Shown one piece after another: positions 44,713 through 44,828 of a stretch of 64,000 bases of DNA. The translations under genes and the position numbers were made by a program. How positions within the stretch are numbered: position 1 is the stretch's first letter; the number at the start of each line of letters is the position of its first letter. The stretch comes from a virus (lineage: Duplodnaviria > Caudoviricetes), in the IMG/VR virus record IMGVR_UViG_3300033179_000002, positions 16,440 to 80,439 of that record, one strand, 5' to 3'. The notes under the pieces were generated by a model. It saw only the letters and a program-made list of their open reading frames with translations. It searched no databases and had not been told where the DNA came from.

Positions 44713-44828
44713 GCCGAGGTAGCTCAGGTGGCAGAGCAGCGCAGACCTTCGTGATGACGCGATGCGTAAGCAGGACGGGCAGCGAAGTTAGGCGTAGGTC
44801 GCGGGTTCAACTCCCGCCCTCGGCACCA
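44713..44828 (+). tRNA. tRNA (Thr-like body) with 47-nt anticodon loop and encoded CCA
   Basis: GCCGAGG/CCTCGGC-ACCA; canonical D- and T-arms; about 40 extra nt. Confidence 0.65.

Follow-up and report, generated by a model that had tools for sequence, protein, structure and literature searches.

Phage tRNAs and tRNA-like RNAs

The tRNA genes of phages are commonly interpreted as codon supplements or as spares against anticodon-cutting defences. Other tRNA-like RNAs that do not decode include mascRNA, the tRNA-like domain of tmRNA and the vtRNAs of gammaherpesvirus 68, along with the small stable RNAs encoded in the tRNA cluster of T4. mascRNA and the vtRNAs are eukaryotic or animal-virus RNAs, and tmRNA requires a G3.U70 pair and a tag reading frame. 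The gene described here occupies positions 44713-44828 of the window, the 64,000-nt stretch of phage DNA that was analysed. It was rejected as a tmRNA because it has C3-G70 and no tag frame, and because the tmRNA mode of ARAGORN finds none genome-wide.

The YrlA Y RNAs of bacteria and phages are tRNA-like (Chen et al. 2014, PMC4201824). The gene at 44713-44828 resembles them in its tRNA acceptor, T and D architecture, in its handling by tRNA enzymes (probable in the case of the phage gene) and in the lack of decoding. YrlA is circularly rearranged, its 'acceptor' being closed and its 'anticodon' end open, and its gene neighbours that for Ro60, whereas the acceptor end of the present gene is open and CCA-ended and the phage genome has no Ro60. 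A Y RNA was rejected since there is no TROVE domain, the ends form a tRNA acceptor stem and no Rfam Y RNA family matches.

Small introns that are not of group I have been described as 'enigmatic' in the tRNAs of Lak megaphages, one case being a tRNA-Thr (Devoto et al. 2019, PMC6784885). The present gene is likewise a phage tRNA gene with an anticodon-loop insert of tens of nucleotides, far below group I size. Removal of the Lak introns gives a normal tRNA, whereas removal of the insert from 44713-44828 does not. T-loop and CCA are both missing from this insert, and an RNA ligase is missing from the phage.

Ponchon et al. (2013, PMC3753655) described tRNA scaffolds engineered for recombinant RNA. 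Their topology is identical to that of the present gene, a foreign structured RNA being grafted on the anticodon stem of an otherwise intact tRNA. They are a laboratory design, and no natural phage counterpart was found in the literature searched.

The phage genome and its probable host

The window comprises positions 16440-80439 of an IMG/VR virus record of 80,439 bases, which was judged 96% complete. The record belongs to an uncultured soil phage with a G+C content of about 68%. Relatives of the large terminase at 79-81% identity are present in a large protein collection, among them P0002 at 81% on a 22.8-kb contig and P0004 at 79% on an 88.7-kb contig. An actinobacterial host is likely from the terminase sequence because relatives at 45-48% identity sit in Streptomyces and Rhizomonospora genomes. 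No prophage relative of the terminase was found among 185,579 species genomes, and the phage encodes no tyrosine or serine recombinase (integrase). A tRNA-derived attP core was rejected on these two grounds and because the body is full-length and lies in mid-genome.

The positions of the terminase, portal and other protein genes are given in Table 1. A link to tRNA through the neighbouring proteins was rejected, since the Prok-JAB protein and the Zeta-toxin-type kinase fusion offer none. Six terminase relatives (P0004, P0027, P0038, P0039, P0046 and P0050) are about 900 aa long and contain a LAGLIDADG_3 domain (PF14528); judged from these sequences, they are probably intein-bearing.

Table 1. 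Features of the gene at 44713-44828, its array, the phage genome and arrays of related loci (positions in the window unless a locus is named)
Feature	Position	Strand	Basis or value
Whole tRNA-shaped gene, 116 nt, Thr(CGU)-type body	44713-44828	+	RF00005 and thrW alignment
Acceptor stem, GCCGAGG as 5' strand	44713-44719 / 44818-44824	+	7/7 pairs, probability 0.99-1.0
D arm, stem GCTC/GAGC, 8-nt loop with A14, G15, G18, G19 and A21	44722-44737	+	Probability 0.93
Anticodon-stem remnant, 4 bp, GCGC/GCGT	44739-44742 / 44792-44795	+	Probability 0.73-0.76
Insert in place of 7-nt anticodon loop, 49 nt, without U33	44743-44791	+	RF00005 alignment
A.G/G.A/A-U/C.U stack between stem remnant and inner helix	44743-44746 / 44788-44791	+
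Inner helix CTTCGT/GCGAAG, 6 bp	44747-44752 / 44782-44787	+	MFE and centroid, probability 0.68-0.77
TTCGTGA, possible Thr(CGU) loop relic, buried in inner helix	44748-44754	+	thrW alignment and direct reading
ACGC/GCGT helix	44757-44760 / 44764-44767	+
Distal hairpin TGC-GTAA-GCA, GNRA-type tetraloop	44763-44772	+	Probability 0.75-0.77
Variable loop AGGTC (G46, C48)	44796-44800	+
T arm: GCGGG, loop TTCAACT, CCCGC	44801-44817	+	5/5 pairs, probability 0.99
Discriminator A73	44825	+
Genomically encoded CCA	44826-44828	+
Six other tRNA-shaped genes (span 43453-44621)	Starts 43453, 43611, 43777, 43949, 44365, 44548	+
First array member, family with invariant 25-nt 5' part (four phages) and hypervariable middle	43453-43536	+
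Array member with 8-nt loop; ARAGORN reads four-base anticodon AACT	43611-43683	+
Array member capped by GUAA	43777-43841	+
Candidate promoter of array second half: TTGACA, 18 nt, TAGTGT, overlapping a near-palindrome	44250-44279	+	Direct reading; uncalled by consensus scan
G+C hairpin, 12 bp, 6 nt past the CCA, no T run	44834-44863	+	-32.7 kcal/mol, z -3.26, 0/200 shuffles as stable
Promoter of next, protein-coding unit: TTGACA, 17 nt, TATGCT with TG	44899-44927	+	Consensus scan 10/12
Stand-alone Prok-JAB protein, immediately upstream of tRNA array	42781-43272	+
747-aa protein, C-terminal Zeta-toxin-type kinase domain	46082-48325	-
Large terminase gene	48927-50798
ThyX-like protein	52083-53405	+
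Portal gene	53607-55922
Anthrax-lethal-factor-like zincin-domain protein, after portal gene	55915-57552	+
UUCG-capped anticodon arm	L003, 4591
Anticodon arm 7 bp longer, GAGA loop	L007, 4973-5056
77 nt within a 5-bp stem	L007, 5244-5385
120-nt gene	L009, 6543-6662
130-nt gene in common	L012, L020, L022

A complete tRNA body

The Rfam tRNA model RF00005 covers 44713-44825 (model positions 1-71) with 49.2 bits (cut-off 29) and an E-value of 1.6e-07, the whole window being the search space. The tRNA body is far beyond chance. All 16 body stem pairs are intact (acceptor 7, D 4, T 5), the D stem being 4/4 paired at 44722-44725 / 44734-44737, and the tertiary nucleotides are all kept, namely U8, A14, G15/C48, G18, G19, G46, G53-C61, T54, C56 and A58. 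There are several length changes, all of which lie in the anticodon arm. The preliminary description had seen a canonical acceptor stem with an encoded CCA, a D-arm and a T-arm, and both the RF00005 match and direct reading bear this out. Default ARAGORN makes no call at 44713-44828.

The body is that of a tRNA-Thr, as had been proposed earlier. It is identical at 59 of 76 aligned positions to Escherichia coli K-12 thrW, annotated as tRNA-Thr(CGU) (NC_000913.3 262871-262946), and differs from it at only four sites over positions 1-31. Both genes have G1-C72, C2-G71, A73, an encoded CCA, the variable loop AGGTC and the 5' anticodon-stem strand GCGCA. The 7-nt loop of thrW is TTCGTAA, whereas in the phage gene 49 nt take its place that lack U33 and an anticodon-presenting loop.

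The anticodon arm and its insert

The gene at 44713-44828 lacks the canonical anticodon arm, in which 5 bp close a 7-nt loop that has U33 and a purine at position 37. The stem GCGC/GCGT had been said to enclose 47 nt; the stem stands, and the enclosed length is 49, becoming 47 only if the adjacent A.G is counted as a closing pair. The CTTCG/CGAAG and ACGC/GCGT helices of the same account are both present in the insert. Together, the mismatch-rich stack and the inner helix are predicted to place about 14 stacked positions atop the stem remnant. An alternative fold with GCGCA/TGCGT is 3 kcal/mol weaker by partition function and is likewise without an anticodon loop.

The fold of the insert is not beyond chance, as 60 of 500 shuffles were at least as stable, and the folding z-score was -1.75 when the whole gene was folded and -1.17 when only the arm was. 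'Structured' is thus fair as a description of the insert and is not a statistical finding. An Rfam search with the insert alone gave no match up to an E-value of 10, to RF00005 or to any other family. The insert contains no TTCRA-type loop closed by a 5-bp stem, and its last bases are TTAG. When copies or antisense targets of the insert were sought in the rest of the genome, the best match was 13 nt (E 0.04) and unconvincing.

Several known RNA elements were tried and rejected. A link to a TIGR-TasA guide array fails as the repeats of the phage's array are unlike the insert. For a box C/D or K-turn element, the C-box sequence GUGAUGA is present at 44751-44757, but there is no CUGA partner and no Rfam match. 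A hammerhead ribozyme would lack C3 and G12 and has no Rfam match.

Possible remains of an anticodon loop and the intron question

The sequence TTCGTGA in the insert, which the preliminary description likened to a Thr(CGT) loop, is indeed one base off the thrW loop TTCGTAA and is followed by TGCGT, a perfect partner of the 5' stem strand. Excision of 44747-44786 leaves C-G-U in the anticodon register, yet with A33, U37 and A.G at 31/39. A further relic is GCGT-A-G, in which the 3' stem strand occurs a second time. The C|GU register and TTCGTGA cannot both be the old loop, and the odds of each arising by chance are put, as a rough estimate, anywhere from a few to tens of per cent. As far as can be read from the sequence, these relics suggest tRNA-Thr(CGU) ancestry with an insertion or duplication and do not point to present splicing. 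The possible C|GU relic would also suggest common ancestry with the 'enigmatic' phage tRNA introns.

A group I intron was rejected, since the insert is 49 nt long against the roughly 200 nt or more needed and has no Intron_gpI match. The earlier judgement that it is too short for self-splicing thus agrees with both its length and the absence of any other Rfam match. Removal by proteins was examined with an excision script, which tries every single excision in the arm and accepts a result if at least four of five stem pairs form and positions 33 and 37 hold U and a purine, respectively. No single excision of 44713-44828 gives a canonical anticodon arm. The same script restored canonical arms in its positive controls, the tRNA-Tyr introns of giant viruses and the insert class of low-GC phages. 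The intron mode of ARAGORN returned two incompatible models, one reading the gene as Thr-CGT interrupted by 22 nt and the other as Gly-TCC interrupted by 20 nt. The phage genome encodes neither a tRNA-splicing endonuclease nor RtcB nor a ligase of the Rnl type (PF01974, PF01139 and PF09414 all absent), and it has no PTH2.

It had been suggested that the insert is a protein-spliced mini-intron, which would make the gene a working tRNA-Thr(CGU) with about 40 nt (44747-44786) removed between C34 and G35. This would place C-G-U exactly in the register of a Thr-type body, and the GAC...GT junction is also present in an unrelated contig (L076, described below). Small non-group-I inserts are known in phage tRNAs (Devoto et al. 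2019, PMC6784885), and restorable inserts occur in our sample, for example in L078. However, the spliced loop would be G-A-C-G-U-U-A, with A33 for the universal U33, U37 for a purine and A.G at 31/39, and the corresponding loop of L076 would be 8 nt long. The insert has neither a T-loop nor a CCA end and matches no Rfam family, the ARAGORN models contradict each other and the phage lacks the processing enzymes named above. The suggestion is therefore unsupported, and a functional mini-intron appears decidedly improbable.

The gene cannot decode, because no excision yields a canonical loop and both the best and the alternative folds are without a 7-nt loop. We favour, with a probability of about 0.5, the reading that it is a non-decoding tRNA mimic which acts through its acceptor/elbow half. 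Because the gene cannot be a working decoder, another earlier suggestion, a nuclease-resistant tRNA variant, would hold only in the sense of a decoy.

The seven-gene array

Seven T-arm motifs lie on the plus strand at 43515-44804, within 1.4 kb, and the gene at 44713-44828 is the last gene of a non-coding unit bounded by promoter-like sites and a strong hairpin. Six of the seven members are non-canonical; besides 44713-44828, these are five non-decoding genes within 43453-44437, whose anticodon arms have a loop of 8 or 20 nt, are capped by GUAA or GUCA, or are almost missing. The sole canonical member is an Ala-GGC gene (44548-44621) with a normal anticodon loop. An encoded CCA is found only in 44713-44828 among the seven. 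Open reading frames through the array have no Pfam match.

From its predicted stability, the hairpin at 44834-44863 is likely to be the end of the non-coding RNA transcription unit. The promoter at 44899-44927 sets the downstream boundary of this unit.

An exact repeat of about 47 nt is present upstream of two array members (43421-43468 and 44316-44363). It holds an imperfect palindrome around CTGCAG together with the 5' part of the first mimic. By direct reading, TTGACA-type promoter-like sites with the near-palindrome TGACACATGATGTGTCA lie upstream of this repeat.

Arrays in related phages

Arrays of tRNA genes were identified at the same place in eleven viral and in further metagenome loci, with terminase identities of 42-78%. 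They contain ordinary tRNAs mixed with bodies bearing capped or extended arms, and their content varies within the phage group. The anticodon arms of the relatives are capped by tetraloops or extended by 20-77 nt (examples in Table 1).

Two members of the window array have orthologues in L003, the gene at 43611 corresponding to L003 4591 and that at 43777 to L003 4755. In both pairs the acceptor, D and T stems are kept by compensatory changes, and the arms are unalignable. The anticodon loop of the Ala gene is identical letter for letter between the window and L003. In the family of the first array member, which spans four phages, 98.3% of stem cells are paired and four pairs have changed on both sides. 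Its covariation score was reached by 2 of 500 shuffles, and shifted registers are only 27-45% paired. The sequences indicate that selection in this phage group acts on the tRNA body and not on the anticodon arm, because the stems co-vary across the window/L003 pairs and the four-phage family while the arms are unrelated.

These comparisons bear on the earlier idea of a natural tRNA scaffold, in which the insert would be the active part (for example a module for protein binding, or a small RNA freed by cleavage) and the body would serve processing and stability only. The insert is predicted to form a stacked arm with a GNRA-capped tip, and the topology is that of the laboratory scaffolds of Ponchon et al. 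(PMC3753655). The inserts of orthologous mimics are, however, unrelated in sequence and length, which argues that the body rather than the insert is kept; the insert of 44713-44828 is unmatched in Rfam, in the rest of the genome and in relatives, and its fold is not significant. A display scaffold is a lesser rival and seems distinctly improbable. Among the three readings offered by the preliminary description, the scaffold came closest in a broader form, scaffold or mimic, which fits best with the kept bodies and swapped arms of neighbours and relatives.

A tRNA of normal appearance with the anticodon CTA (amber-suppressor type) was observed at L012:4660-4732 and L022:506-578; ARAGORN labels it 'Pyl'.

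Search for orthologues of the gene

The gene at 44713-44828 is absent from L003, the closest relative in which the region is available (terminase 73% identical). No orthologue was found among 50,697 phage records (megablast and blastn), among all fetched loci by blastn, or in five whole related records scanned with RF00005, at the array site or elsewhere. The two halves of the gene have no other occurrence in IMG/VR by exact and gapped patterns, the 5' half is not found in 185,579 species genomes, and the use of the downstream open reading frame as a lure recovered no orthologue. The insert was likewise unmatched in the relatives. An insert that is a one-off, absent from relatives, had been named beforehand as an outcome that would refute the earlier account; this is half borne out, as the exact insert is a one-off in the collections searched and its kind is recurrent. 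Selection on 44713-44828 itself lacks orthologue support, so that the gene is a weak witness and the surrounding array makes the stronger case.

The junction pattern gave one true look-alike, in L076, an unrelated 5.5-kb viral contig with 57% G+C. This gene is 104 nt long and CCA-ended and has a Thr-type body. It shares with 44713-44828 the GCGCA...GGCGT closure and the GAC...GT junction, and the inner helix of its long arm is of other sequence and still paired. Homology beyond the body is likely for these two genes; two sequences are too few for covariation. A second candidate, in L149, was rejected as a chance match in coding DNA.

L076 itself carries a few more unusual tRNA bodies (L076:1107-1305 and L076:3589-3657, minus strand). 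One is 97 nt long and combines a 6-nt loop with a long variable arm, and another, beside the 104-nt gene, is a 69-nt mimic sealed by CCGGG-CUGU-CCCGG.

The lack of orthologues raises the question of a dead gene, that is, a phage tRNA-Thr(CGU) broken by a loop insertion or partial duplication, functionless and awaiting further decay. The gene is a singleton that is missing from its nearest relative L003, the relics of the Thr loop and the second 3' stem-strand copy also fit recent breakage, the structure of the insert is not significant against shuffles, and the differing array content across the phage group is consistent with fast turnover. Against this, several separate length changes affect only the anticodon arm, with the 16 body stem pairs and the tertiary nucleotides remaining perfect, five neighbours are also non-decoding and have bodies conserved with compensatory changes across phages, and the unrelated contig L076 has the same closure and junction. 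We consider a dead gene rather unlikely.

A possible function as a tRNA mimic

If 44713-44828 is a non-decoding mimic, its source would be a gene of the tRNA-Thr(CGU) type whose anticodon loop took up an insertion or was partly duplicated. The product would be a stable tRNA-shaped RNA of about 116 nt that is unable to read codons. RNase P would cut the 5' end of the transcript, and the 3' end would be trimmed to the CCA as in a tRNA. The remodelled arm would exclude the RNA from the ribosome and from enzymes that read or cut the anticodon loop. Its most likely role would be that of a competitor or decoy for proteins that bind the end or the elbow of tRNA, and the targets could be tRNA-directed defence toxins of the host or tRNA-processing enzymes. 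Alternatively, the body may serve as a processing signal for the surrounding transcript.

A wider proposal is that phages of high-G+C soil bacteria keep families of sealed or extended tRNA bodies as decoys for immune enzymes that hit acceptor ends or elbows. The present gene would then be a Thr-type decoy derived from an intron-split tRNA-Thr(CGU), linking mini-introns and mimics. We regard this proposal as quite unlikely.

Retention of a whole tRNA body with the anticodon given up would represent a third use of phage tRNA genes, namely tRNA mimicry by DNA phages. Annotation labels such genes 'undetermined' or pseudo-tRNAs. Should they be decoys or processing signals, they would form a new class of phage small RNA, and if some descend from split tRNAs, they would bear on the handling of small phage tRNA introns.

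Related genes in viral metagenomes

Non-decoding tRNA look-alikes are common in phages and barely described, and the literature searched held nothing on open-ended, anticodon-less phage tRNA bodies. Their frequency was estimated by two pattern scans of IMG/VR, both tied to one D-arm consensus. At least 99 viral bodies have good acceptor and T stems around a middle of 42-72 nt. In at least 60 distinct viral bodies the acceptor, D and T arms are perfect, and only 9-18 nt stand in for the anticodon arm and variable loop. Many of these short middles form a 4-bp stem capped by a tetraloop, and in some the arm is missing altogether (L151-L260, e.g. L154:2647, L170, L198 and L152). The scans suggest that viral metagenomes contain hundreds of genes or more with sealed or oversized arms.

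A separate insert class was observed in low-GC phage contigs (L035, L048, L053, L058, L059, L079, L085, L088, L098, L102, L103, L114, L118, L125, L138 and L147). Each contig has several tRNA genes with varied anticodons that carry an insert of 40-49 nt within the anticodon stem, on its 5' strand and following roughly nt 28-30 (e.g. L053:6628-6744 and L035:1052-1165). Rfam searches of L035, L053, L058, L088 and L096 returned tRNA and no other family. The insert contains a 7-9-bp hairpin followed by the conserved motif ACAGCAA(T), and its removal gives perfect anticodon arms for Asn, Pro, Arg, Thr, Gln, Gly, Lys and other tRNAs.
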